From a phage, in NCBI GenBank assembly GCA_024682255.1, contig GCA_024682255.1_4716.1: a stretch of 64,000 bases of DNA; one strand, written 5' to 3'. The notes beneath the pieces were generated by a model. The model saw nothing but the letters and a program-made list of their open reading frames with translations, was not told the DNA's origin and did not search any database. The translations under genes were made by a program, and so were the position numbers. Of the stretch, positions 29,168 through 41,073 are shown one piece after another; position 1 is the stretch's first letter; every line of letters begins with the position of its first letter.

Positions 29168-32077
29168 ATGAACGATATAAATAAAGGGCGCGTCGCCCTC
29201 GAACGTCAAATGAGCAATAATGACGTTGCGAAGGCACTCATGAACAAATTTGTCGCTCCTGCTCCGCAGTCACGTCTTTATAACACACGTGATGCGGAAG
29301 GAGCGAGCGGTCGTTTCGGGTTAGTTGTTCCCGACCAAATGACGATGAACACGGTTACGCGTGCGACCGCGACAAACATCGAGGATAATAAAAACATCCT
29401 CGAGCTGTTCCCTGAACTTAAACGCGTGATGCAGATCTATGTTGCCGCGTTGACGAACCCTAACGATCTTAAGACGGTCGAGATGTTTATCGACAGCGAA
29501 GATTTCCCCGGCAGAGTCGCAGAAATCGTTCAGCCGATGATCGATACCATCGACACGCATTTTAAGAATATCTATAAAATAAAGACGCTTATCCCTCGTA
29601 TCATCGAAGACGTCTTCTTTATCAAGGGCAGTTATAACTTCGTTGTTCTGCCAGAAAGCACACTCGACCGCGCGATTAATGGTAACGGTCAACTGAAACT
29701 TGAAGAATACGGATTTAAAGACAACCATTTTGCAAGTTGGGGGCTTCTAGGTAACGACAGTCGCAAACGCCACGAAAATCAATTACCTGCGACGGTTTCG
29801 ATGGAAGATTATTTCTCAGGCGTTAATGAAACCATACCGTACGATCCTGTTGTTCGCATAGACAGTATCAAGTTTACCAATACCCTGCTTCGCGATAAGG
29901 ACGGTAAATTCATTGAAGCGAAGATCGATATTCCGGATATGGTTACGGTGGTCGATAACCCAGATATCCTCCGCATGCCCATTCTGCATCAGCGTCGAGC
30001 GGCGACAGCGGTACAACGTGCGTTACGTGCAAACACGTTAGGTGGTAGTGGTTTGGTAACACTGTCAGGTGACCCAACCCTAACCGCTAACCGACGTGAG
30101 CTGACGCAAGAACAGGTTAACGAGATCTGGAATAAGCTCAACATCCAGCGCCACACCAAGGTATCTCCCGTTTACGCGCTGGCAACCCCAGATACGCTCG
30201 ATCGTCAAAGCGTCGGTCATCCTGGCGTGATGCACGTACCACCTGAGGCATTAGAACCCGTACATGCGCCTGGTGATCCGGAGAACCATATCGGATATTT
30301 GGTTCAGTTGGATGAGTTTGGTTATCCGGTACGTTTGGTTGAAGATGCAGCGTATTACAAGCAGTTGGAAGGTCGGTTGTCGAAGATCACCGCAGATATC
30401 GCAGGTACGTCAAGCAACGGCATGGCGAGCGAGATGATCGGCGCGGCCAAGAACATGATCCAAGGTACGTCATGTAATCAGGTAGACATGTCGGCCTTCG
30501 TATCGTCGTACGAATCGCTGATGCAACGTTACATCGTTGAACGTATCGTTAACGGTTATCTCGGCAGTGCTGTGGAAATCGGCGCGACATCATCGTTTTA
30601 TCTGTCGATGCTTGCCCGTAGCCTCGCTCACAAGCAGACCCGTGTTTTGTTTATTCCTCGAGAGATGGTGACTTACATCGCCTATGAATACAACAAATAC
30701 GGTATCGGTCGTTCGCTGCTTGAAAGTACGAAGATGATCTCGTCGCAACGAGCCATGCTCATGGTTCAAGAACTGATGGCGAAAATCAAAAGTTCGTTGA
30801 ACTATACGACGCTAAGCGTAATGCTTGAAGACACCGACAGAAACCCGGTCGATACCGTCGAACAAGCACTGCATAGTTTCGCTCGTGTCTACCAGTCTGG
30901 TTTCCCGTTGGGTGAAACTAACCCGATGGATATCATCAATGCGTACGAACGAAGCTCGATTCGATTGAAGGTCGAGGGGAATAACCCACGCTTCCCGAAA
31001 TTGAACACAGACGTCAGTGTTGAGCAGCGTAACTATCAGTCTCCTGATAATGAGCTGATGGATCGTTACCGTCGTGACCATTTCATGGGCTTGGGCGTTT
31101 CTCCGGAGATTATCGATACTTCCTACCAATCTGAATTCGCAGCTTCTGTGATTACAGCTAACGCGATGCAAGAGAAACAGTTCACGGTTTGTCGTGAGGT
31201 GATCACGAATGGATTAACCGATCACATCAAGAAGTACACGGCATACAGTCCTGTGTTGTTGACGTCGTTACGAAACACGGTTCGTGCGAACATGTCTAAG
31301 CTCTCCCAAGCGCAATTGAAGCAACTTTTTGGTAGCGATTTCGAAAACGGTGTTATCCGTAACGTTAACGCTTATCAGGAGATTGACGATCAATCAGCAA
31401 CAATGGATCTGGATTACACTAAACCAGAAGTCCAGGAAGTTATTGCCGATGCTTATGTGTCCATGTTCTTAAACAGCCTGTGTGTGCGTTTACCGGATAG
31501 CAATGCTCGTCGCCTTGAAGATCAGGTACGTGAATATAATCAGTACAAGGAAGCGATTACTGCGCAACTTGATGATTATTTAACGCCTGATTACGTCATG
31601 GGTCTGGGTGGGGTTGATGAAACAACGCTGCAGATGATCCGCGCATGCATTATTGGTACCGCGATGCGTACGTGGGCAAAAGAGAACAACTTCAATCAGG
31701 AGCTGGCTGATCTCTTCAGTCTTGACGATAAGAAGAATGCCGTGCAAGATTGGAAACGTATGTCCATGGAACATATTGAAGTCATGGGTAAATGCATGGG
31801 TGATTTTGCATTGTATATTCAGAATCTGACGAAGAAGATTGAAGAGAAGATGGGAGCTCAAGCACAGGACGGCAGCGTTTCATCTGACGGTTCGTGGTCA
31901 TCCGATTCAAGTAGCGATACCGGTTCTTCTGATGACTTCGGTGGCGGTGACGATTTCGGAGATACCGATTTCGATACCGAAACGATGGAGGAAACCTCAA
32001 CAGAAGAAACAACCACATCTGAGGAAACGACGACCAACACAACGTCAGAAGACGACACTTCAGGTGACATTGTTTAA
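29168..32077 (+). CDS. large hypothetical protein with acidic Ser/Thr/Asp/Glu-rich C-terminal tail
   Basis: 969-aa ORF; ATG with AAGGAG RBS ~10 nt upstream; C-terminus SSDGSWSSDSSSDTGSSDDFGGGDDFGDTDFDTETMEETSTEETTTSEETTT; followed by conserved hairpin. Confidence 0.55.
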   Translation: MNDINKGRVALERQMSNNDVAKALMNKFVAPAPQSRLYNTRDAEGASGRFGLVVPDQMTMNTVTRATATNIEDNKNILELFPELKRVMQIYVAALTNPNDLKTVEMFIDSEDFPGRVAEIVQPMIDTIDTHFKNIYKIKTLIPRIIEDVFFIKGSYNFVVLPESTLDRAINGNGQLKLEEYGFKDNHFASWGLLGNDSRKRHENQLPATVSMEDYFSGVNETIPYDPVVRIDSIKFTNTLLRDKDGKFIEAKIDIPDMVTVVDNPDILRMPILHQRRAATAVQRALRANTLGGSGLVTLSGDPTLTANRRELTQEQVNEIWNKLNIQRHTKVSPVYALATPDTLDRQSVGHPGVMHVPPEALEPVHAPGDPENHIGYLVQLDEFGYPVRLVEDAAYYKQLEGRLSKITADIAGTSSNGMASEMIGAAKNMIQGTSCNQVDMSAFVSSYESLMQRYIVERIVNGYLGSAVEIGATSSFYLSMLARSLAHKQTRVLFIPREMVTYIAYEYNKYGIGRSLLESTKMISSQRAMLMVQELMAKIKSSLNYTTLSVMLEDTDRNPVDTVEQALHSFARVYQSGFPLGETNPMDIINAYERSSIRLKVEGNNPRFPKLNTDVSVEQRNYQSPDNELMDRYRRDHFMGLGVSPEIIDTSYQSEFAASVITANAMQEKQFTVCREVITNGLTDHIKKYTAYSPVLLTSLRNTVRANMSKLSQAQLKQLFGSDFENGVIRNVNAYQEIDDQSATMDLDYTKPEVQEVIADAYVSMFLNSLCVRLPDSNARRLEDQVREYNQYKEAITAQLDDYLTPDYVMGLGGVDETTLQMIRACIIGTAMRTWAKENNFNQELADLFSLDDKKNAVQDWKRMSMEHIEVMGKCMGDFALYIQNLTKKIEEKMGAQAQDGSVSSDGSWSSDSSSDTGSSDDFGGGDDFGDTDFDTETMEETSTEETTTSEETTTNTTSEDDTSGDIV

Positions 32078-32161: not shown

Positions 32162-32437
32162 TTATTTCGAGGTTAACCACGATTCAATTGTGGTGAGTTT
32201 GCTTCTCAGTACGCGCCAACTAGGGTGTGGTGGGATCACAGCGCCTTTGTCGATTACGGTTAGCTGAACCTGGTACTTCTGTTGCATACGTGCTACCGTG
32301 TCGCTTATCGAGAGGAAAAGCTGGTAACGTTCATATGCCGTCAGTTCACTGTCCTGTTGAACTGCGTTGGCCGCTAACGTAATTTCGCGTAAGTCCTTTG
32401 CATCCACAGAGACGGTAATGAGTTTATATTGACTCAT
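32162..32437 (-). CDS. hypothetical small protein
   Basis: 91-aa ORF downstream of the 852-aa gene. Confidence 0.4.
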   Translation of the reverse strand: MSQYKLITVSVDAKDLREITLAANAVQQDSELTAYERYQLFLSISDTVARMQQKYQVQLTVIDKGAVIPPHPSWRVLRSKLTTIESWLTSK

Positions 32438-32498
32438 ACGGTTTCCTTATCAACTAGGGTATTGCAAATACAATACCCGTCGTCGGACGATAAGTTAA

Positions 32499-35057
32499 TT
32501 ACTGCTCATCACGTTCCAGCAGATACTCGGAAGCGGTAATACCGTTTACCGTACGTACTGCTTTCAGACGAGTATCATCACTCAGAATCACAGTAACAGA
32601 TTGTAGACCTTTTACTTTGGTTTCGAAGGTCTTGAATACCTGATCCAGCATACGAGCAATGCTTGGGTTGGTTGCAGCCGATGCGTGAGTGTAACCGCTC
32701 TGGTTCAGCTTCAGAATCTTGGCGTTGGTCGGTACGCGAACAACAACATGCGGACGCATCGCGAACACGCTGTGATTAAACCAGTAAGCATCGTTGCTAT
32801 CTTCGTCGGTAACGATGTCCGGATTAACACGCATATCCTCGATAGCCGCATCCGCCAAACGACGTTCGATTTCGTCAGCATCCAGAGAGCCATCTTTCTC
32901 CAGTTCTGCACGATACTCGCTCATGGCAACCAGATGACGTTCACGATTCGCTGCGGATTTTTCGTGAGCTGCTTTCAGGTAGTCATGCATGTTGTACAGT
33001 TCAGCCATGGAAAGACGAATGTTCCACTGACCTTCGCCATCACGATTGCAGTAGAGACACTTCAGCATGTTGACCCAGGTGTAGTAGCAATTGGAGAATT
33101 CATCTTCAATGAACTTCTGGTCCATTTTAAGATCGTGAATCAGCCAACCGGACAGTTCTCCGATATCATCAACGAAGCTAGAGATGGTGGTTTCAGAGAA
33201 GTTCTTCGGTACGATACGTTTGATCAGCTTATTGACGTCTTTGGTCATGCTATCGTTCAGGAAATGCCAAATACGCAGAGGAATGACATCTCGATACTGT
33301 TGCATGATCTGACGATAAGCTTTGATATCGTCGCTACGACCTTTATCAATAGACAACGCATCCAGGAATTCATGGATTGCATCCAGCTCTTTGTCGGTAT
33401 AGGTTCCCAGATAGGAATTGACGGTGGCCAGGAATGCTAATGCGTCGTTTTGGTTAACGTCGGTGTTGGTCTGCTGAATGATCGCCACTGCAGCTTTAGT
33501 TTCAGCATCCTCAACGCTTGACGCTGCGATTGCATCGGTGACGGTAAACAGTTTCATTTCGCGCTGCTCACCGACAACGATTGGCTCACGCTGAACCGGC
33601 TTGTTAAGACTAACACGAACAACTTCTGCTTGCGCGATACGATCCAGTTTTGCCATTTCCTGCTCTGCCATACGACGAGCGGTTGGATCTGATTCAAGTT
33701 CGATGTATTCCACTTCTTCCTCCGTGAGGGATGTAATGTCAACAATGGTTTCATGAAGAATTCCGTTTTCGTCGATACGTGCTCGACGAGCGAAGTGCCT
33801 GAAGTCATACAACGTCGGCCAACGACTATTAGGTGCGTAGTCTTTGGCTTTCAGACGCATCTGCATAAATTCATCATGTTGAACAACACGACCGTAACGC
33901 TTAGCATCTTCGGTCGCATCAATTGGATTAACGGTCTTTGTTGCCGTAGCGGAACGAGCCGTACGAACCGGTTCCGGTTTCACCTGCGCCGGTTCAGGTT
34001 GAACGGGTTTCTGCTGTCCAGCCTTAACATGCCATTCTGGCTCTTCGTACTGTTCAGCAAATTGCTCAGCCGCTGCAAAGATATCGTTGATACCACCAAT
34101 ATCTCCTTCAGGATTTGTCGAGTAAATCCGTGGTTGTGGTGCCTCGTAACGCGGCGCTGTAGCAGCAGGTGCATCATCAACGATAGGATCGTCATCACCA
34201 ACATCATACAAACGGTTGAACGCACAATCCTTCGAATCGATGTACGATGGCGCTTGTGGTTGAACAACCGTCGGCCGAGGTTGTGCGCCGTATCCTGGCG
34301 TTGTTGGAGCCATACCACGCATAACTGCCGGATTAGGCCGGTATTGCGGTTGCGGATAGGTTCCACCATACATGGCGTACGCTGGCTGTTGTGGTTGACC
34401 GTACCCGCCACTAACCATCGCGCTTGCTTGCGGACCACGATAAGTCATCCCCATCTGCATCACCTGCTGCTTCAAACCACGTGACTTCTGAGCGATTTGC
34501 GCCAGGCTCCCACTTTTATTCAGCTGCGTGTACTTATTCGCGGCTTCCGGGTTAATGCGTGATAATTCAATCGCGCGATAATATTCCGGGTACTGATTCG
34601 GTTCAAAGAGCCACGTTACAAGATGATACAGCGCAACTGTGCTCACGGCAGCAGAGACGATCTGGTCGTCGGACGCGTTCTGTGGCATCGGGTTGATGTA
34701 AGAGAACACGTTCCAACAACAGTCTTCAACAAGCGATTCCATCATCATGTCGTTATTGGTATAACGTGCGACGAACTCGGTTTGTATTTTGTCTTGCTGA
34801 GCGAAGTCTTTCAGGACATTAAAGATGGCTTGACGGATTTTGACGATCGTCGCTTCTTGGGTGATGAAGTTATAGTTCTGCTGATATGAGGGTTGTTGGT
34901 ATTGTGGTGGTTGATAGGCGTTATTCGGGTATGCGCCGTACGGCGATTGCTGATACTGTTGCTGACGAACCTGTTCAGCCGTATAATTAACCGTGCTCGT
35001 ATAAGGGTTTTCGCTATAGCCCATTTGTTGATACATGTTGTTACTGCCGTTATACAT
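32499..35057 (-). CDS. large hypothetical protein with Q/Y/N/P-rich low-complexity (prion-like) segments
   Basis: 852 aa; N-terminus MYNGSNNMYQQMGYSENPYTS...QQQYQQSPYGAYPNNAYQPPQYQQPSYQQNYNF and an internal GGYGQPQQPAYAMYGGTYPQPQYRPNP stretch; remainder looks globular. Confidence 0.6.
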   Translation of the reverse strand: MYNGSNNMYQQMGYSENPYTSTVNYTAEQVRQQQYQQSPYGAYPNNAYQPPQYQQPSYQQNYNFITQEATIVKIRQAIFNVLKDFAQQDKIQTEFVARYTNNDMMMESLVEDCCWNVFSYINPMPQNASDDQIVSAAVSTVALYHLVTWLFEPNQYPEYYRAIELSRINPEAANKYTQLNKSGSLAQIAQKSRGLKQQVMQMGMTYRGPQASAMVSGGYGQPQQPAYAMYGGTYPQPQYRPNPAVMRGMAPTTPGYGAQPRPTVVQPQAPSYIDSKDCAFNRLYDVGDDDPIVDDAPAATAPRYEAPQPRIYSTNPEGDIGGINDIFAAAEQFAEQYEEPEWHVKAGQQKPVQPEPAQVKPEPVRTARSATATKTVNPIDATEDAKRYGRVVQHDEFMQMRLKAKDYAPNSRWPTLYDFRHFARRARIDENGILHETIVDITSLTEEEVEYIELESDPTARRMAEQEMAKLDRIAQAEVVRVSLNKPVQREPIVVGEQREMKLFTVTDAIAASSVEDAETKAAVAIIQQTNTDVNQNDALAFLATVNSYLGTYTDKELDAIHEFLDALSIDKGRSDDIKAYRQIMQQYRDVIPLRIWHFLNDSMTKDVNKLIKRIVPKNFSETTISSFVDDIGELSGWLIHDLKMDQKFIEDEFSNCYYTWVNMLKCLYCNRDGEGQWNIRLSMAELYNMHDYLKAAHEKSAANRERHLVAMSEYRAELEKDGSLDADEIERRLADAAIEDMRVNPDIVTDEDSNDAYWFNHSVFAMRPHVVVRVPTNAKILKLNQSGYTHASAATNPSIARMLDQVFKTFETKVKGLQSVTVILSDDTRLKAVRTVNGITASEYLLERDEQ

Positions 35058-35091
35058 TTCTTACGATCCTTTTTATTTATTCGGTTAGGTG

Positions 35092-36891
35092 TCAATCGAT
35101 TATGTCGTGATCGTTAATTTCTACAATTTCTTCATCGAATCGACCGACGTCTTTCTTCAAGCCTGCATTGGTTGCTGCAACGTCATTTGCGATTTGTGGG
35201 GTAATGATTAACCGACCGCGTTCGTCGATAGGTGCGTACATACTGAACTTCTGACGTCCGGTTGGTTCGGAGTGTGGAAGATTCAGATAGCTTGCGCAGA
35301 ACGGGATGGAACCACTAACCAAACGACTCTCGTCAGCCAATGCAGCACCGCCTGCGTTTTGGCTCTGGAGAACAACATGCGTGCTCACTTTGAACAGCAT
35401 GCAATCACCAGGTGACTGAATCGATGTTGCCACTTTCTCACGTTTATCACGATTGCTCTGGATATTGAGAATCGCTTCCGTTGCAACTTGATTTCGCAAC
35501 GCTTTCTGTACATCGCGATTGGTCATCTCTTTACGGTTGTTCTGTCGTTTACCACGTTCTGTGGTTTTAAGATGGAACCCCAGTTTAAAGATGCTCTTAC
35601 GCACATCCTCCATGACATATTCCAACACCATCAATTCCTTACCGAACATCGTCGTGGTATCAACACGACTCATTTCGATAGTAACATTGTCGATCAGATA
35701 CGCCATAAATTCGTAGAAGTCGTCGCAAGGAATATTTTCCTGTTTGAACTTCTTCTGCTGAATCTCGTCAACGTAAAGATCGAGACTGTCGATGTGGTGG
35801 TTTACATCACGCAACAAACGCGCATCCGCATTGTTGTTATTAAAGATAATCAAACCGAGTAATGTACGCCAATGGTCTGGCGCATTCGCGAACTCTTCAA
35901 CCGGATAATCTTCCGGAAAACGATCGTAATAACGGTCGATGAGATACAAGAATGCACCGACAAGGCCAAGAACAATACGTTCCGTGCCTCCGCGTCTTAC
36001 AGCAATTTGAATATCAGGATGTTTGTAACGTACAGCGCTAGCGCTACGACTTTTACCGCTTTTGCTGATACTAAAGCCTTTAGGAATAACCCCCATGGTG
36101 CGATAGATTACCCATTGGTCACGCGGAAAATCGCGTTCAGCAAGGTTCCGTCCGGTTACGGCTTCGACACCCGCAAAACGTCGGAAACACTCACCCACCC
36201 CATACTTCGCAAAGAGATAGTGACCCAGTGTGGTTACGCTGGTGTGGTTGATGTTGTCACCGTTCACTTTACTTTGTTTGGTAAGATGATAGATTTGCGA
36301 CCAGGGTAATGACAGGTAATGACGATAATCGATACCGGTCGGTGTATCATTGCTCAGGAACTGATACGGTGTACGTTTAACCGTGATTTTGTCACGCGGA
36401 AGCATGATGAATGCCATGTCTTTCGTGTAACTGATTACAGGGTCAGCGAGCACCGCGCTGAGAATGAAGTTCGCACCACGTAGACGCATTTTACCACCCT
36501 GACCTACCGCGGGTAATAGGAGAGGATGTCGGATAATGCAGTAGTCCTTTCCGGGTTCACGACGGTCACCTGATTCCATCGCGCCGTACCAGCGGAATTC
36601 TAGCATCACCATAAACACATCGGAAGGCGCAAGGTCGAAGGTCAGCTTACCGCTATCCTTCCCTTTGGTTTTCTTTCCTCCGCTTAAGTAGTGGAACTGT
36701 TCGCGGGCCATACAGCGACGCAGGCCATGATACACCAGATCCTTAGGTAAACTATCTTTGCTGTTCCGCCAAAGACGATCAACATAGGACTCAACATCTT
36801 GCATCTTATCGACGACGATGTTGCGTGCTATCTTCTCGTTCATCTTCGGTGCAAGCTCAGCGACAGCTTTGCAGAATCTAGGATCCATCAC
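35092..36891 (-). CDS. large hypothetical protein
   Basis: 599-aa ORF starting MMDPRF; no motif recognised. Confidence 0.55.
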   Translation of the reverse strand: MMDPRFCKAVAELAPKMNEKIARNIVVDKMQDVESYVDRLWRNSKDSLPKDLVYHGLRRCMAREQFHYLSGGKKTKGKDSGKLTFDLAPSDVFMVMLEFRWYGAMESGDRREPGKDYCIIRHPLLLPAVGQGGKMRLRGANFILSAVLADPVISYTKDMAFIMLPRDKITVKRTPYQFLSNDTPTGIDYRHYLSLPWSQIYHLTKQSKVNGDNINHTSVTTLGHYLFAKYGVGECFRRFAGVEAVTGRNLAERDFPRDQWVIYRTMGVIPKGFSISKSGKSRSASAVRYKHPDIQIAVRRGGTERIVLGLVGAFLYLIDRYYDRFPEDYPVEEFANAPDHWRTLLGLIIFNNNNADARLLRDVNHHIDSLDLYVDEIQQKKFKQENIPCDDFYEFMAYLIDNVTIEMSRVDTTTMFGKELMVLEYVMEDVRKSIFKLGFHLKTTERGKRQNNRKEMTNRDVQKALRNQVATEAILNIQSNRDKREKVATSIQSPGDCMLFKVSTHVVLQSQNAGGAALADESRLVSGSIPFCASYLNLPHSEPTGRQKFSMYAPIDERGRLIITPQIANDVAATNAGLKKDVGRFDEEIVEINDHDIID

Positions 36892-36927: not shown

Positions 36928-38364
36928 TTACTTTTTCGATGCCGCTTTCTCAAGAATCTTGAAAAAGGTCATACCTATACCGACAACGGCCGCAGTTATA
37001 CTCGCAGCGGCTTTCCAAACATCGACGTTACGTTGACGTCGCGCTTCTTCCGCCTCACGTTGTCTTTTTGCCTCTTCATCTCGACGACGTAGCTCGGCCG
37101 TGAATTCATCATGCTTACGTTTCGCGTCCTCATCTCGGCGACGCATTTCAGCGATAAATTCATCGTGCTTTCGTTTTGCTTCCTCATCACGACGTTTTAA
37201 ATCAGCTTGATAATCTTCGTGTATTTGTCTACGTAGATCATCTTGACGTTTCATTTCGGCTTGGTGTTGTTCCATCCTACGTTTTTGTTCGTCTTTAAGC
37301 TGATCGAGTTCGGCTTTATGTTGTTCATCACGCAGCTTTGCGTCGGCGCGATGCGCCTCGTGCATCTGTGCGATAACTGCCTTGTGTTCATCCGCCATAC
37401 GTCGCATTTCAGCCATCACCCCTTTAAGGGTTTCTTCTGATGCCTTACGTTCGTAGCTACGTTGGTCGAAATCATTTTTGTAGGCTTCTTTTTGGACGGG
37501 GTCGCGCCAATGCAATGCCGATTCACGTGTCGGAAAAACATTGTACTTCCACATCTCTTTTTCCAAATCTTCGACCGGTACGAAGATGGAGTCATTATTC
37601 CCGAAGGTAACCAACATACCTGGCGCGCCTGCTCCATTCGTTGGTTTTATTTCGAACGCTTTCCCCAGCACGTTAACCCATAAGCTATACGGATTATGAA
37701 AGTCGGGTGGCGTCCAATGGATAGTGAGTTGTGTTCCGAGAATCCGGAAACCCTCTGTTTTTCCCGTCAAGCTCCGCGCGCACGTTGCGATGTAGGGGTG
37801 ATCAATCCCTTTCGTAACGTGGTCTGCGCTTTTGTATTCTCCTTTAACTTTTACGATTGCCACGTTGATTTGCGCGACATAAGCGGGTTGATTAAAGTTC
37901 AACGTGTTGAGGTCAATTTGACATATCTCATCCAGCGTATCGTACCAGTCTTGCTGGTCTAATAGACGCGGCATTTTCTCTGTGTTAACAATACGACGGA
38001 TATGCGGTTTCCTTATCGCGTAACCTGTGCCGTTTTTAACACGGAGTATATCCCGACGTCTACCCGCGTAGACGAAGTTTCTGAATGCACCATTCGCATT
38101 AGATACGTCATGGCTGTCAACTATTACAGGACTACGAAATTTTGAACGTCGTACGATCCTGAATGTATTGCCGTCCTCAACCCTACCAGGAATGTACTGG
38201 AACATATTGTCGGAGGTGATAACCAACACGGTATGGCCAGATTCATTAATACATGCCCATCCTAATTCCAGGTCATATAACGGTTCAGCATAACCGTCAA
38301 TGCGATAAGCGTGCGTACCATCCCACGGTTCGAACGCGGTATCACATATTGGCATGGAGGGCAT
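36928..38364 (-). CDS. hypothetical tail-anchored membrane protein with charged E/R/K repeat helix
   Basis: Start re-assigned to ATG with GGAGG RBS (ORF track began at TTG 38370); globular N-domain, then tandem RRRDEEAKRKHDEF(I/T)AE(M/L) repeats in a ~130-aa E/R/K/Q-rich segment, then C-terminal hydrophobic AAASITAAVVGIGMTFFKIL. Confidence 0.6.
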   Translation of the reverse strand: MPSMPICDTAFEPWDGTHAYRIDGYAEPLYDLELGWACINESGHTVLVITSDNMFQYIPGRVEDGNTFRIVRRSKFRSPVIVDSHDVSNANGAFRNFVYAGRRRDILRVKNGTGYAIRKPHIRRIVNTEKMPRLLDQQDWYDTLDEICQIDLNTLNFNQPAYVAQINVAIVKVKGEYKSADHVTKGIDHPYIATCARSLTGKTEGFRILGTQLTIHWTPPDFHNPYSLWVNVLGKAFEIKPTNGAGAPGMLVTFGNNDSIFVPVEDLEKEMWKYNVFPTRESALHWRDPVQKEAYKNDFDQRSYERKASEETLKGVMAEMRRMADEHKAVIAQMHEAHRADAKLRDEQHKAELDQLKDEQKRRMEQHQAEMKRQDDLRRQIHEDYQADLKRRDEEAKRKHDEFIAEMRRRDEDAKRKHDEFTAELRRRDEEAKRQREAEEARRQRNVDVWKAAASITAAVVGIGMTFFKILEKAASKK

Positions 38365-38572
38365 CGTCAACCTCCATCTGATTGAAAACTATCACGCATA
38401 ACGCATTTCCCTTTTCTTGTTCTTATCAATCCGACAGCCGACGGTTTCAGCATCGTTCCTAGCGCGAGAACGACCTTACGTGTTGTCTATGCCTTATTCA
38501 TCGCAGGCGTCTGTCACCTAGGTAATGTAAGCGTCAAATTTTTTCTATTCGCAACGATAAACGGCATAGAAA

Positions 38573-38602
38573 CCTCCCCCAACCCTTACGGGCTGAGGGA
38601 GG
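38573..38602 (-). terminator. divergent copy of the conserved hairpin, downstream of the putative capsid gene
   Basis: CCTCCCCCAACCCTTACGGGCTGAGGGAGG; upstream flank GGCATAGAAA, downstream CTGACTTATG; a second small hairpin CCGGATGAATGTCCGG lies between it and the capsid stop. Confidence 0.5.
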
Positions 38603-38701
38603 CTGACTTATGTATCACGGTGCCGGATGAATGTCCGGTGCAATGAAACCATCCGCAACGTTGTCGTCAAGAATATCATCCAACGAAGCAGCTACGGTAG
38701 T

Positions 38702-40924
38702 TCAGTTGGTCTGAACCGGCAGCTTGATGTTTTCAGTGTAGACCTTACGCAGGTTCACAACGTTAATCAGACCCAGCAGCGGGCAGTTGTTAACGAAGCG
38801 GCAGCGCGGCTGAACCATGGTTTCTTTAGAAACCTGACCGTTACGGGTAACCTGAGCAACAGATACCAGTTCCGGTACATACAGGAACATACCGAAGGTC
38901 AGCGGATCCGGAGAACCCTGGATACCACGAGACAGGGTCACGAAGATCTTATCGCGCAGCATGACGTTCGGGTTATCTACAACCACGAAGTTGAAGCTTA
39001 CACCAACGGTACGGAAATCACCATCGGTCTGCAGGAACTGCGGGATGTAGTTGTCAGTTGCTACTACGCAACGCGGTTTCTCATCAGCGTTGGAAGACAG
39101 CAGCTGCAGAGCTGGCTGATAACCAGACTCGGAGTACATGCGGTATGCCATTTCACGAATCACGTTCATGATCGCAGCAGACACTTCAGCACGACGTTCT
39201 GCAGTGGTGGTACCCTGAACAGATTTCTCCAGGTCCAGATTGATTTCTTCGAACCACGGACGGATCAGGTAACGACCGAAACCTTCGATCTGGATGTCGC
39301 CGAACTGACGGAAGCGAGAGGTCGCAACCGCTTTCAGTGCGTCTTTGTAGCTGAACAGTTTCTCAACCATCAGGTTGTCGAAACGTGCGTTAGCAGCTTG
39401 GATCAGAACGTCCAGGTCAGCAGCGTTTTCTTCCCAATCCAGCGGACGAGGAATGGAGAACGGAGCCAGCAGGCCGATTGCGTAACGTTCTTGCTTCATG
39501 TTGAAGTCAAGGTGCTTACCACGCTCACGACGGTTGCTGTTGTTACGGCGGATACGCAGTTCGTAACCAACCAGTTTGAAGCTCAGGTCTTCAGCCAGTT
39601 GTTTGAACTCTTCGCTCTTACGCGGTTGTTCGATGTTGTCCTGATCAACCAGGCGATACAGTTCAGCGTTAGCGCCGTTAACACGCAGACCGGCTTTCTC
39701 TACGTTGGAAGAACCGTAAACTTCGATTGCCAGCTGAGCAGCGGATTTCGCATCGATGATGTCCTGCAGCGCTTCGGCTTTCGCGCCTTTAACGTCAACG
39801 GTGTTCTCATCAACGAAGATGGAGTGGGTGTCGAACGCCAGGGTCATTTTGCGGAAGTCGCCTTCCAGGGATTTCTGGAAACCGTTGGTGATCAGACCAG
39901 ATACGTCGAACGGTACGTAAGAGGTTTTGCTGTGCTTGGTAGATTTGATTTCCACCAGGATTTTGGTCAGCGTGATCTGGGCGTCCAGTGCGTCGGTGTT
40001 GTCGCTGTAACCGTTAGCCAGGATGCTATCGTCTTCAGCAATACCGATCATGTCGATCAGTTTATCAACAGCCAGGTAAGACGTTTTATAAGTTACGCCT
40101 TTAATTTCGATGTCACGCGGAGCAACGATAGTTTTGTCAACGAAGTACTGTGCGTTAGCATCGTCAGCACGATAGATCGGATGCAGATCGGTCACGTCGT
40201 TGGACAGAACGTCGTTGTACATGAACGCATCCAGCAGCGGACGACGTACCCAATCAGCCGGAGTACCGTCAGCGTTACGACGCAGGTGGTTGAACACCAG
40301 CGGACGACGGAAAGATACGTCGTAACCGATCTGGTTCGGAGCCAGAACGATGGTGTTATACAGTTCGTTACCCATGCGGCTCAGACGAGAAGCCTTCACG
40401 TTGAACACAACGGAGTACGGCATCATGTCACGCAGTTCTTTCTGGTCGTAGGACAGCTGAACCAGTTCTTCAGATTCGCAACCGCAGGAATCAGCAGCCA
40501 TCATGACGAAGTTAGAGCTGTCAACTTCACGGCCAGACGGAGTGGTGCTGATGTTCATGGAACGTGCTTGTTTAGCATATTCCACCGGGTTACCATGAGC
40601 CAGCATGATCAGTGCTGCTGCACGAGCCTGCTGTGCGTTCATGGTGAACAGCTGTTCTTCAATACGCTGCTTCTCTTCCGGAGTGGTGGTTTCGAAGCCC
40701 AGCATGGACAGAACCGGTTCTTCGGCTTTACGGATGTCGCTGCTGAAGCTCTTAACATCCATTTCGTTAACCAGTTTGTCCATGGATTTGAAATCAACCT
40801 TAGAAGCAGATTCCATAGACAGGAAGGTGTTCTCCAGACCTTTGTCTGCTGGTTTGCTACCATTAGCGGTCAGGAACTGGCGAGTGGCCGCGACCTGTTG
40901 GCTAAGAAGGGTTTTATCATTCAT
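38702..40924 (-). CDS. putative major capsid protein (jumbo-phage type, ~740 aa)
   Basis: 740-aa ORF with conspicuous high-expression codon usage (CTG, CGT, CCG, GGT, AAC, TTC dominate) unlike neighbours; tandem hairpins downstream; size fits phiKZ-like major capsid proteins; no sequence search possible. Confidence 0.5.
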   Translation of the reverse strand: MNDKTLLSQQVAATRQFLTANGSKPADKGLENTFLSMESASKVDFKSMDKLVNEMDVKSFSSDIRKAEEPVLSMLGFETTTPEEKQRIEEQLFTMNAQQARAAALIMLAHGNPVEYAKQARSMNISTTPSGREVDSSNFVMMAADSCGCESEELVQLSYDQKELRDMMPYSVVFNVKASRLSRMGNELYNTIVLAPNQIGYDVSFRRPLVFNHLRRNADGTPADWVRRPLLDAFMYNDVLSNDVTDLHPIYRADDANAQYFVDKTIVAPRDIEIKGVTYKTSYLAVDKLIDMIGIAEDDSILANGYSDNTDALDAQITLTKILVEIKSTKHSKTSYVPFDVSGLITNGFQKSLEGDFRKMTLAFDTHSIFVDENTVDVKGAKAEALQDIIDAKSAAQLAIEVYGSSNVEKAGLRVNGANAELYRLVDQDNIEQPRKSEEFKQLAEDLSFKLVGYELRIRRNNSNRRERGKHLDFNMKQERYAIGLLAPFSIPRPLDWEENAADLDVLIQAANARFDNLMVEKLFSYKDALKAVATSRFRQFGDIQIEGFGRYLIRPWFEEINLDLEKSVQGTTTAERRAEVSAAIMNVIREMAYRMYSESGYQPALQLLSSNADEKPRCVVATDNYIPQFLQTDGDFRTVGVSFNFVVVDNPNVMLRDKIFVTLSRGIQGSPDPLTFGMFLYVPELVSVAQVTRNGQVSKETMVQPRCRFVNNCPLLGLINVVNLRKVYTENIKLPVQTN

Positions 40925-41073
40925 TGAAAGTATCCTTTACAGAATTAACTTATATAAGTCGGTCGATAGACCATAGCGTACACGCGTGCATGCGCCACTA
41001 TAGTATCAGTAAACACTTACCGTTATTGAGGTCGTGATACAACACTAAAAATGCCGCATAACTTTTCCCTACG

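Follow-up and report, generated by a model that had tools for sequence, protein, structure and literature searches.

Goslar gp38 is very probably a divergent JADA ortholog whose low-complexity segments fall into one of two family-wide composition classes

A protein of 852 amino acids (aa) with two unusually Tyr- and Gln-rich segments is encoded on the minus strand of a 64,000-nt stretch of phage DNA, called the window here (NCBI GenBank assembly GCA_024682255.1, contig GCA_024682255.1_4716.1). Its gene, at positions 32499–35057, showed 97.5% nucleotide identity to positions 37235–39793 of vB_EcoM_Goslar (MK327938), in which the equivalent gene, gp38 (Goslar_00038), is annotated as 'hypothetical protein'. 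The source of the window is a Goslar-like nucleus-forming jumbo phage, that is, a chimallivirus; a sequence-only reading of the window had supposed that this phage may build compartments, and in this it was right. The gene lies directly 3' of gp39, in the same orientation. The gp39 product is the homolog of phiKZ gp123, a subunit of the non-virion RNA polymerase (nvRNAP), and was matched by tblastn in 235 phage records, PHIKZ123 among them. We report that the 852-aa protein is almost certainly, as judged from sequence profiles and locus position, a very divergent ortholog of JADA (Pa36 gp316, phiKZ gp124), and that its low-complexity segments belong to a module found across the JADA family.

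The ATG at position 35057 is the first start codon past the upstream in-frame stop, and only 34 nt separate it from the stop of the preceding gene, gp39. Further Met codons occur at residues 8 and 12, both within the N-terminal low-complexity region (LCR1), and then not until residue 104. The N-terminus beginning with MYNG was retained in four homologs of Goslar gp38. The position of the first start, its spacing from gp39 and the AAGGA ahead of it place the start upstream of the N-terminal segment, which thus belongs to the protein.

The composition of the two segments was then counted. Residues 1–65 contain 22% Q, 18% Y, 14% N, 9% P and 8% S, and within LCR1 Q+N+Y make up 55%. Residues 201–285 contain 15% P, 12% Q, 12% G, 11% Y, 11% A and 7% M; for the second low-complexity region (LCR2), the count was 8 aromatics and 5 charged residues within 73 aa. 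Charged residues account for 5–7% in both low-complexity windows compared with 24% in the other proteins of the window. In its best 40-aa stretch the protein reaches 62.5% Q+N+Y, whereas the runner-up open reading frame (ORF) of the 64 kb reaches 40% and the other top-scoring ORFs typically 27.5–32.5%. Against the window background (Q+N+Y 13.4%), the binomial P-values were 7e-13 for the best 40-aa stretch, 6e-15 for LCR1 and 1e-9 for LCR2, and no DNA tandem repeat was found beneath either region. The counts bear out the sequence-only reading that the N-terminal ~65 residues and an internal stretch are dominated by Q, Y, N, P and G and that such a composition is rare, which among the proteins of this phage it clearly is. 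Its further claim that the rest of the protein is globular held only in part: aa 66–200 and 386–852 have an ordinary composition, whereas aa 286–385 are rich in A, P, E and D, and aa 276–385 are also predicted to be unstructured. The features are collected in Table 1.

Table 1. Features of the gp38 gene, its product and the adjacent polymerase gene, in window coordinates (AF2, AlphaFold2; pLDDT, predicted local distance difference test score; HMM, hidden Markov model).
Feature	Coordinates	Strand	Basis
Coding sequence, 852 aa, ATG start, equivalent of Goslar gp38 / Goslar_00038	32499..35057	-	ORF list
LCR1, aa 1-64, Q/Y/N/P-rich, 13 aromatics (20%), 3 charged residues	34866..35057	-	composition
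N-terminal helical domain, aa 65-200	34458..34865	-	AF2 helices, pLDDT 50-63
LCR2, aa 201-275, P/Q/G/Y/A/M-rich, 8 Tyr, net charge +3	34233..34457	-	composition; ortholog linker position
Second linker part, aa 276-385, A/P/E/D-rich, acidic patch YDVGDDDPIVDD	33903..34232	-	composition; pLDDT 21-36
C-terminal domain, aa 386-852, very probable JADA C-terminal fold (9RP3, a ring-like dimer)	32502..33902	-	HMM, Foldseek
HMM-matched core of the C-terminal domain, aa 408-674	33036..33836	-	JADA-family HMM
Insertion in the C-terminal domain, predicted as a long helical hairpin, aa ~684-744	32826..33008	-	alignment gap elsewhere, AF2
Shine-Dalgarno-like AAGGA, 9 nt 5' of the ATG	35067..35071	-	read from sequence
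Upstream gene gp39, nvRNAP subunit, phiKZ gp123 homolog	35092..36891	-	phrog_2943, E 7e-120

Pfam gave only Cas9_C_2 at 18.4 bits, under its cut-off of 27, PHROGs gave no match, and tblastn against 50,697 phage records matched Goslar alone. A word-indexed search of 5.8 billion proteins returned just four close relatives with 80–98% identity. Exhaustive phmmer with aa 380–852 against 1.84 billion representatives added one cluster, P0005, with 38% identity in the C-terminal half, and P0005 as query led to two further proteins; a profile built from 11 very divergent C-terminal domains (A2) had zero matches. P0005 apparently represents an uncharacterised sister group of Goslarvirus. The contig encoding it (L092, Logan ERR3928893, 71 kb) carries genes for PhiKZ_MCP, for proteins of 179, 413 and 593 aa, for the JADA-like protein of 774 aa (P0005) and for one of 110 aa, followed by a 965-aa gene on the opposite strand, so that the P0005 locus keeps the same gene order. 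The N-terminal arm of P0005 is much shorter than that of Goslar.

Gene order was more informative than these searches. Nine reference phages (phiKZ, 201phi2-1, Eowyn, RAY, PCH45, FLC4-4C, Aphrodite1, EL and CF8) share the order major capsid protein, gp122-like protein, gp123 homolog and then a 'hypothetical protein' of 687–827 aa. In 80 IMG/VR loci gathered via the neighbouring polymerase (gp123-homolog) gene, an ORF of 606–888 aa lay directly downstream of the polymerase gene on the same strand in 76; the other four were incomplete contigs or had the ORF displaced by ~800 nt. One ortholog so displaced, of 896 aa (L072, 6892–9582), has a Goslar-like Y/Q/N-rich N-terminus (MYQQNFQNNGYYQNQQQFGGYS...) despite its different lineage. 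An HMM of the Goslar clade scored only 7–12 bits against 10 positional orthologs, and pairwise BLASTP of the window protein against positional orthologs gave short collinear matches with E-values from 4e-5 to 4e-4. Homology became clear only after the 76 further positional orthologs had been collected from IMG/VR via the polymerase gene.

An HMM seeded with aa 270–721 of phiKZ gp124 was iterated on a database from which the entire Goslar clade had been removed. It matched aa 408–674 of the window protein with 57.4 bits (E 8e-20 as a single comparison) and the P0005 clade with 84–96 bits over nearly the whole C-terminal domain, and zero reversed-sequence decoys were matched. The reverse iteration, started from aa 380–852 of the window protein, recovered 85 of the 87 distinct positional orthologs and no reversed decoys. 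The core of the C-terminal domain contains the family motif W..L....T..VN..L......I..F.DDI.EL..(W/Y)L at aa 597–639. As for structures, all 721 residues of phiKZ gp124 were covered by its match to PDB entry 9RP3 ('Gp316/JADA'; 1666 bits, E=0). When only the Goslar clade went into the profile, 9rp3_A came second of 177,635 PDB sequences, but with an E-value of 0.12. By Foldseek against PDB, 9rp3_B/A were the only matches at E<=0.001 (E 7.8e-4, prob 0.95; low-confidence model, TM 0.2), and the best match in BFVD was Eowyn gp146, a positional ortholog (E 2.6e-6), with other jumbo-phage proteins of equal size ranking after it. Because of the low confidence of the AF2 models they were not used for structural claims, and the Foldseek matches serve as ranking evidence only. 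The conserved gene order, the independent profile HMM and the Foldseek top matches together identify Goslar gp38 as a JADA ortholog, a kinship that the sequence-only reading had overlooked, with a probability that we consider close to certainty.

Besides lying immediately 3' of the nvRNAP gp123 homolog in the same orientation, Goslar gp38 shares with the JADA of phiKZ and Pa36 a predicted architecture of a helical N-terminal domain, a long disordered low-complexity linker and a large homologous C-terminal domain. The linker, aa 201–385, is predicted with pLDDT 21–36, and the median linker length in the family is 188 aa. Residues 65–200 are a probable counterpart of the JADA N-terminal domain (residues 1–170): the HMM of that domain gave 7–16 bits on the sister clade P0005-7 and no match in the Goslar genus, and the N-terminal regions of Goslar and P0005 matched by BLASTP with E=0.007 over 36 aa. 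The differences are considerable. Identity to JADA is near the detection limit (BLASTP E 4e-4 over 90 aa), and in length the Goslar protein exceeds JADA by 131 aa. An additional Tyr/Gln-rich arm precedes its N-terminal domain, its linker is longer and in two parts, and a helical hairpin of ~60 aa is inserted in its C-terminal domain. The hairpin is specific to the Goslar/P0005 clade and falls in an alignment gap in every other aligned family member; its helices, 684–721 and 727–744, are the most confident part of both AF2 models (pLDDT 74–85). The dimer, the vesicle localisation, the essentiality and the Avs5 response described below are known from the Pa36 and phiKZ proteins, whereas the Goslar protein is known from its sequence.

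Pa36 gp316 was named JADA by Muralidharan et al. [quoted passage not shown] JADA of Pseudomonas phages is an essential early protein that at 10 min ranks with the most abundant ones (PMC12931631). Pa36 JADA is diffuse if expressed alone and forms foci at early-phage-infection (EPI) vesicles upon infection only; cryo-EM gave density for the C-terminal domain only, a ring-like dimer, and none for the N-terminal part; the C-terminal domain alone suffices to activate Avs5; and the linker is described merely as 'disordered or flexible' (PMC12931631). These authors left the molecular function of JADA to be elucidated (PMC12931631), and a review of June 2026 agrees. Antisense knockdown of PhiKZ124 lowered plaque formation and propagation as well as ChmA and strongly changed phage transcription at 30 min, and the gene was classed as non-core in that screen (Gerovac et al., Nature 2025, PMC12571901). 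Low complexity, composition and condensates are mentioned in neither of these JADA papers, and our literature search found nothing linking EPI vesicles to condensates.

We then asked how widely the segments occur, counting as a segment any 40-aa window in which Q/N/Y/P/G/M make up at least 55% and D/E/K/R no more than 10%. At least one segment was present in 68 of 87 orthologs compared with 6 of 523 control ORFs (at least 200 aa, same loci); it was N-terminal in 46 orthologs and internal in 64. Pooled over the family, Met makes up 6% of segment residues, and the Goslar version is the most Tyr-rich example. When 85 orthologs were typed into two classes, 66 carried the Q/N/Y/P/G/M kind of segment (Q-type), 17 carried the Arg-rich R/D/G/S kind (R-type), none was both and 2 were neither. 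Among 394 unique control ORFs (at least 300 aa, same loci) five qualified as Q- or R-type, of which one was the displaced L072 ortholog and two were copies of the Goslar-type gp122-like protein. The sequence-only reading had made its case depend on conservation of the low-complexity region in homologs; a region of one of the two kinds was present in 83 of 85 orthologs, whereas the N-terminal segment as such was present in only 46 of 87.

R-type linkers are built of repeats that are rich in Arg and of mixed charge (R 19%, D 12%, G 11%, S 8%; e.g. GRDRGRGRDRDYDRDDRGGRDRDRR). They were found at loci L042, L047, L048, L054, L057, L059, L074, L079–L082, L086 and L088 and, among the reference phages, in PCH45 (L006, 5142–7202) and FLC4-4C (L007, 5188–7275), with linkers resembling RD, RG, RS and RGG repeats. 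The R-type occurred in at least 10 of 40 clusters (30% identity), interspersed with the Q-type, and both types were once found within one cluster. This distribution suggests repeated switching between Q-type and R-type linkers, as far as so crude a clustering can tell.

Constraint on the segments was estimated within the Goslar genus as the ratio of nonsynonymous to synonymous substitution rates (dN/dS) between the window protein and two contigs with 80–89% protein identity. The ratio was 0.13–0.19 in LCR1, 0.12–0.13 in LCR2, 0.13–0.15 in the second linker part, 0.16–0.17 in the folded N-terminal domain and 0.04–0.09 in the C-terminal domain. The value for LCR1 indicates that this region is translated and constrained. 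Furthermore, the LCR1 indels in P0003 and P0004 are in frame and keep the composition, adding extra Y/Q/P units.

The pattern of polar uncharged spacers with multiple aromatic stickers is present in both LCR1 and LCR2. In LCR1 the aromatics stand at residues 2, 9, 14, 19, 25, 35, 40, 43, 48, 53, 58, 62 and 64, with a spacing of ~5 residues; the coefficient of variation of the gaps was 0.37 compared with 0.79±0.19 in 20,000 shuffles (P=0.0019), and the same test on LCR1 of P0003 gave P=0.0004. Among 55 non-redundant representatives of the family, 37 of the 41 segments with at least five aromatics were more evenly spaced than the shuffle mean (sign test p=1e-7), a result that may be slightly biased, since Tyr is one of the residues by which a segment was defined. 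Aromatics evenly spaced against an uncharged polar background are reportedly, according to Martin et al. 2020, a signature of phase-separating prion-like domains. On account of the family conservation and the low dN/dS, we consider it likely that the low-complexity segments are functional and under selection, as far as sequence comparison can tell. The family-wide low-complexity module in two flavours and its aromatic patterning appear not to have been reported before.

The gene is mosaic within the genus. Compared with two contigs (L013, 6335–8926; L011, 6335–8893), the window gene showed synonymous divergence (dS) from L013 of 1.2 in LCR1, 1.08 in the N-terminal domain, 0.78 in LCR2, 0.32 in the linker and 0.11 in the C-terminal domain. 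Between Goslar and the window gene, dS was 0.38 in LCR2 only and 0.03–0.08 elsewhere. These steps point to recombination with breakpoints inside the disordered region, so that the N-terminal module and the C-terminal domain would have different histories.

Taken together, the segments are probably not junk: they would be disordered arms kept by selection, of a kind that fits multivalent cohesive or RNA-binding tethers. The explanation that we prefer, a JADA ortholog with selected and cohesive disordered arms, is modestly probable as a whole, and its last part, a cohesive or condensate-like action of the arms, is tentative. In the arms, Tyr (and Met) would stand at even intervals among uncharged polar spacers (Q/N/P/G), and in Goslar each C-terminal dimer would carry four arms. 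Through numerous contacts, each weak and reversible, the arms may hold on to one another, to RNA or to further early factors. Such contacts would concentrate JADA and its partners into the focus at the EPI vesicle, which would be the place of early transcription, translation and nucleus nucleation. JADA would then be a scaffold or a client in a nucleated hub rather than an autonomous prion.

A bolder form of this proposal, which at present we regard as unlikely, is that JADA arms, polar-aromatic or Arg-rich mixed-charge depending on the lineage, assemble into a small condensate at the EPI vesicle surface. The condensate might capture emerging early mRNAs, ribosomes, and new nvRNAP and chimallin subunits and organise the hand-over from vesicle to nucleus. 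If true, bacterial viruses would have in it an equivalent of the viral factories or transcription hubs of eukaryotes, JADA would gain the molecular function it lacks, and the repeated swaps of two 'condensate grammars' in one family would serve as a natural experiment on how disordered regions evolve.

Several observations weigh against cohesive arms. Pa36 JADA is diffuse in uninfected cells and is a soluble dimer fit for size-exclusion chromatography, mass photometry and cryo-EM at 2.1 A (PMC12931631), indicating that the arms do not self-condense at those concentrations. The linker ranges from 93 to 401 aa in length and its sequence is unconserved, as a plain spacer would also show. Of the 87 orthologs, 41 lack the N-terminal segment, which is therefore dispensable for the core function. 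Aromatic spacing in LCR2 was not significantly regular (P=0.18), and with 26 Q/N per 80 aa the window protein stays under the 30 of the classical definition of Q/N-rich prion domains. The AF2 models are of low confidence (pLDDT 36 with 5 sequences, 48.7 with 8 sequences for aa 383–852), and homology of the N-terminal domain is supported weakly and indirectly, by the HMM via the P0005 clade and the BLASTP match given above.

The main rival is a passive tether, in which the segments are flexible, soluble spacers for the N-terminal domain and the C-terminal ring and their composition is merely tolerated. We consider this somewhat unlikely. It accounts for the variable length, for a sequence unconserved beyond the genus, for the orthologs that do without an N-terminal segment, for the missing cryo-EM density in a soluble dimer (PMC12931631), for recombination breakpoints within the region and for the seeming acceptance of two chemically opposite flavours, uncharged polar and Arg/Asp-rich. 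Against it, dN/dS of the segments within the genus is as low as that of the folded N-terminal domain. The 83 of 85 orthologs fall into two narrow composition classes and not among generic S/T/E/K/P linkers, and the aromatics, which make up 20% of LCR1, are evenly spaced, although a spacer has no need of them and they cost solubility. In addition, LCR1 lies at a free terminus and joins nothing.

A specific binding platform, in which short degenerate motifs bind defined partners stoichiometrically and without collective behaviour, is less probable again, though it overlaps the preferred explanation and does not exclude it. Phage mRNA, ribosomes, nvRNAP subunits still to be imported, chimallin and host proteins are candidates for such partners. 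In its favour, RG/RGG- and RS/RD-like repeats occur in the R/D/G/S linkers of 17 orthologs, and a few patches, MRGMAPT and YDVGDDD, are conserved at the genus level. Repeats of these kinds are typical of RNA-binding tails. The gene is always 3' of the nvRNAP subunit and its knockdown disturbs transcription (PMC12931631, PMC12571901), and ProteInfer and AF3 suggest that the JADA C-terminal domain may bind nucleic acid (PMC12931631). Binding of phiKZ gp124 to host DnaX and FtsZ is reported by way of a secondary citation in PMC11849849 and is unmentioned in the JADA papers. Against such a platform, no motif is conserved across the family, and phmmer of LCR1 and LCR2 against all PDB sequences yielded nothing meaningful: one segment had no match and the other a single chance match (mS33, E 0.17). 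A likeness to the linker of the E. coli single-stranded DNA-binding protein (SSB) is only compositional. A YDV linear motif after LCR2 was also considered and rejected; it occurred in 17 of 87 orthologs compared with 9.7±3.1 expected, mostly in close relatives.

A true prion, in which LCR1 becomes a self-templating amyloid that alters the activity of the protein, is very improbable. The composition is indeed Q/N/Y-rich and nearly uncharged, and by the criterion attributed to Michelitsch and Weissman (at least 30 Q+N in 80 residues) 19 of 87 orthologs qualify, with a count of 30 in the sister protein P0003. The window protein, however, has a maximum of 26 (residues 1–80), it contains 9–15% Pro and evenly spaced aromatics, and 17 orthologs carry a highly charged segment instead. 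Pro and evenly spaced aromatics are said by Martin et al. 2020 to disfavour amyloid and to favour liquid-like behaviour of prion-like domains. A lytic infection cycle, moreover, is probably too short to exploit a heritable conformer. The prion-like or phase-separating character proposed by the sequence-only reading is thus partly supported: charge is low and aromatic stickers are present, whereas the classical Q/N count falls short and the high Pro content speaks against amyloid. Its idea that such segments could drive condensates is reasonable; the foci of the published ortholog at EPI vesicles count for it, and the diffuse state of Pa36 JADA in uninfected cells counts against autonomous phase separation (PMC12931631). 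Finally, the probability is close to nil that the whole is an artefact, with the real start downstream and LCR1 untranslated or with the ORF not a gene, given the conserved N-terminus, the dN/dS of LCR1, the position and spacing of the start with its AAGGA, the next Met after position 12 lying only at 104 inside the helical domain, and the same kind of N-terminal segment in 46 of 87 orthologs.

Nucleus-forming jumbo phages cannot do without JADA, and JADA is what Avs5 senses. Goslar is the E. coli model chimallivirus, and its JADA ortholog was missed by ordinary searches. Gp38 is a new, very divergent member of a family described in 2025–26, and across that family the 'disordered linker' would be a low-complexity module that is kept by selection and follows either of two stereotyped chemistries. 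Being the most Tyr-rich example and having an extra arm, the Goslar version makes a good test case. If the arms were mere spacers, the finding would shrink to the annotation of one more family member.

The genes around gp38 also showed some features of their own. The product of the gp122-like gene (36928–38370, minus strand), two genes upstream, ends in a repeated coiled-coil unit of R/E/D/K (..RRRDEEAKRKHDEF.., present three times) together with a hydrophobic tail anchor; among its positional orthologs, 52 of 80 have a C-terminal hydrophobic 19-mer (Kyte-Doolittle at least 1.6). Knockdown of PhiKZ122 likewise disturbs phage transcription (PMC12571901). A conserved tail-anchored membrane protein beside an EPI-vesicle-localising protein may merit attention. 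On the plus strand, a 969-aa virion structural protein (phrog_3004, 29168–32077) ends in a long, acidic, low-complexity tail rich in S/D/T/E over its last ~70 codons (..SSDGSWSSDSSSDTGSSDDFGGGDDFGDTDFDTETMEETSTEETTTSEETTTNTTSEDDTSGDIV). A 766-aa ORF (38627–40927, plus strand) lies antisense to the whole major capsid gene (38702–40924, minus strand, 740 aa); it is V/R/F/T-rich and junk-like and probably arises from the strong codon bias of the capsid gene. Right after the stop of gp38, a weak terminator-like hairpin with a T-rich run (32475–32490, minus strand) was found as a consensus match only, and the next ORF past it is the 91-aa gp37 (32162–32437, minus strand). The promoter/terminator scan gave fewer sites than in shuffles, this hairpin being the only relevant one.

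We compared the segments with known systems. The SSB linker of E. coli shares with the Goslar protein the hexapeptide GQPQQP after GG plus an aromatic, and a G/Q/P-rich stretch followed by an acidic DDD patch; the patch is internal in the Goslar protein, whereas in SSB it forms the C-terminal tip. Mimicry of the SSB linker and tip was rejected for want of statistical support, since BLASTP with compositional adjustment gave E=0.033 over a different 15-aa stretch and the likeness is compositional. Among chimallivirus proteins, ChmC (PhiPA3 gp61 / Goslar gp176) reportedly demixes with RNA in vitro. Like JADA it is a conserved non-virion protein; it binds RNA, associates with the phage nucleus and is tied to the handling of phage mRNA, and its description includes a condensate analysis (10.1101/2023.09.22.559000). 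Unlike JADA it is the product of an unrelated gene at another locus (gp176 in Goslar) and is found at the nuclear shell rather than the EPI vesicle; homology between the two was not seen, though no search aimed at it was made.

Further parallels lie outside phages. The R/D/G/S repeats in 17 of 85 JADA linkers resemble the RGG/RS mixed-charge regions of eukaryotic RNA-binding and speckle proteins; the window protein has the uncharged Q/Y type, so that this parallel would concern the family and a possible RNA binding. No sequence similarity to domains of the FUS / hnRNPA1 type was detectable by phmmer of the segments against PDB sequences. With the low-complexity domains of FUS and hnRNPA1, whose features are reportedly those described by Martin et al. 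2020 and Wang et al. 2018, the Goslar segments share an almost uncharged composition, Tyr as the dominant aromatic (11–20% here) among Q/N/G/S/P, an even spacing of aromatics and the junction to an oligomerising folded domain. The Goslar arms differ in being shorter (64 and 75 aa compared with about 135–215 aa) and in having Q/N/P spacers instead of G/S, and Met is frequent in the JADA family.

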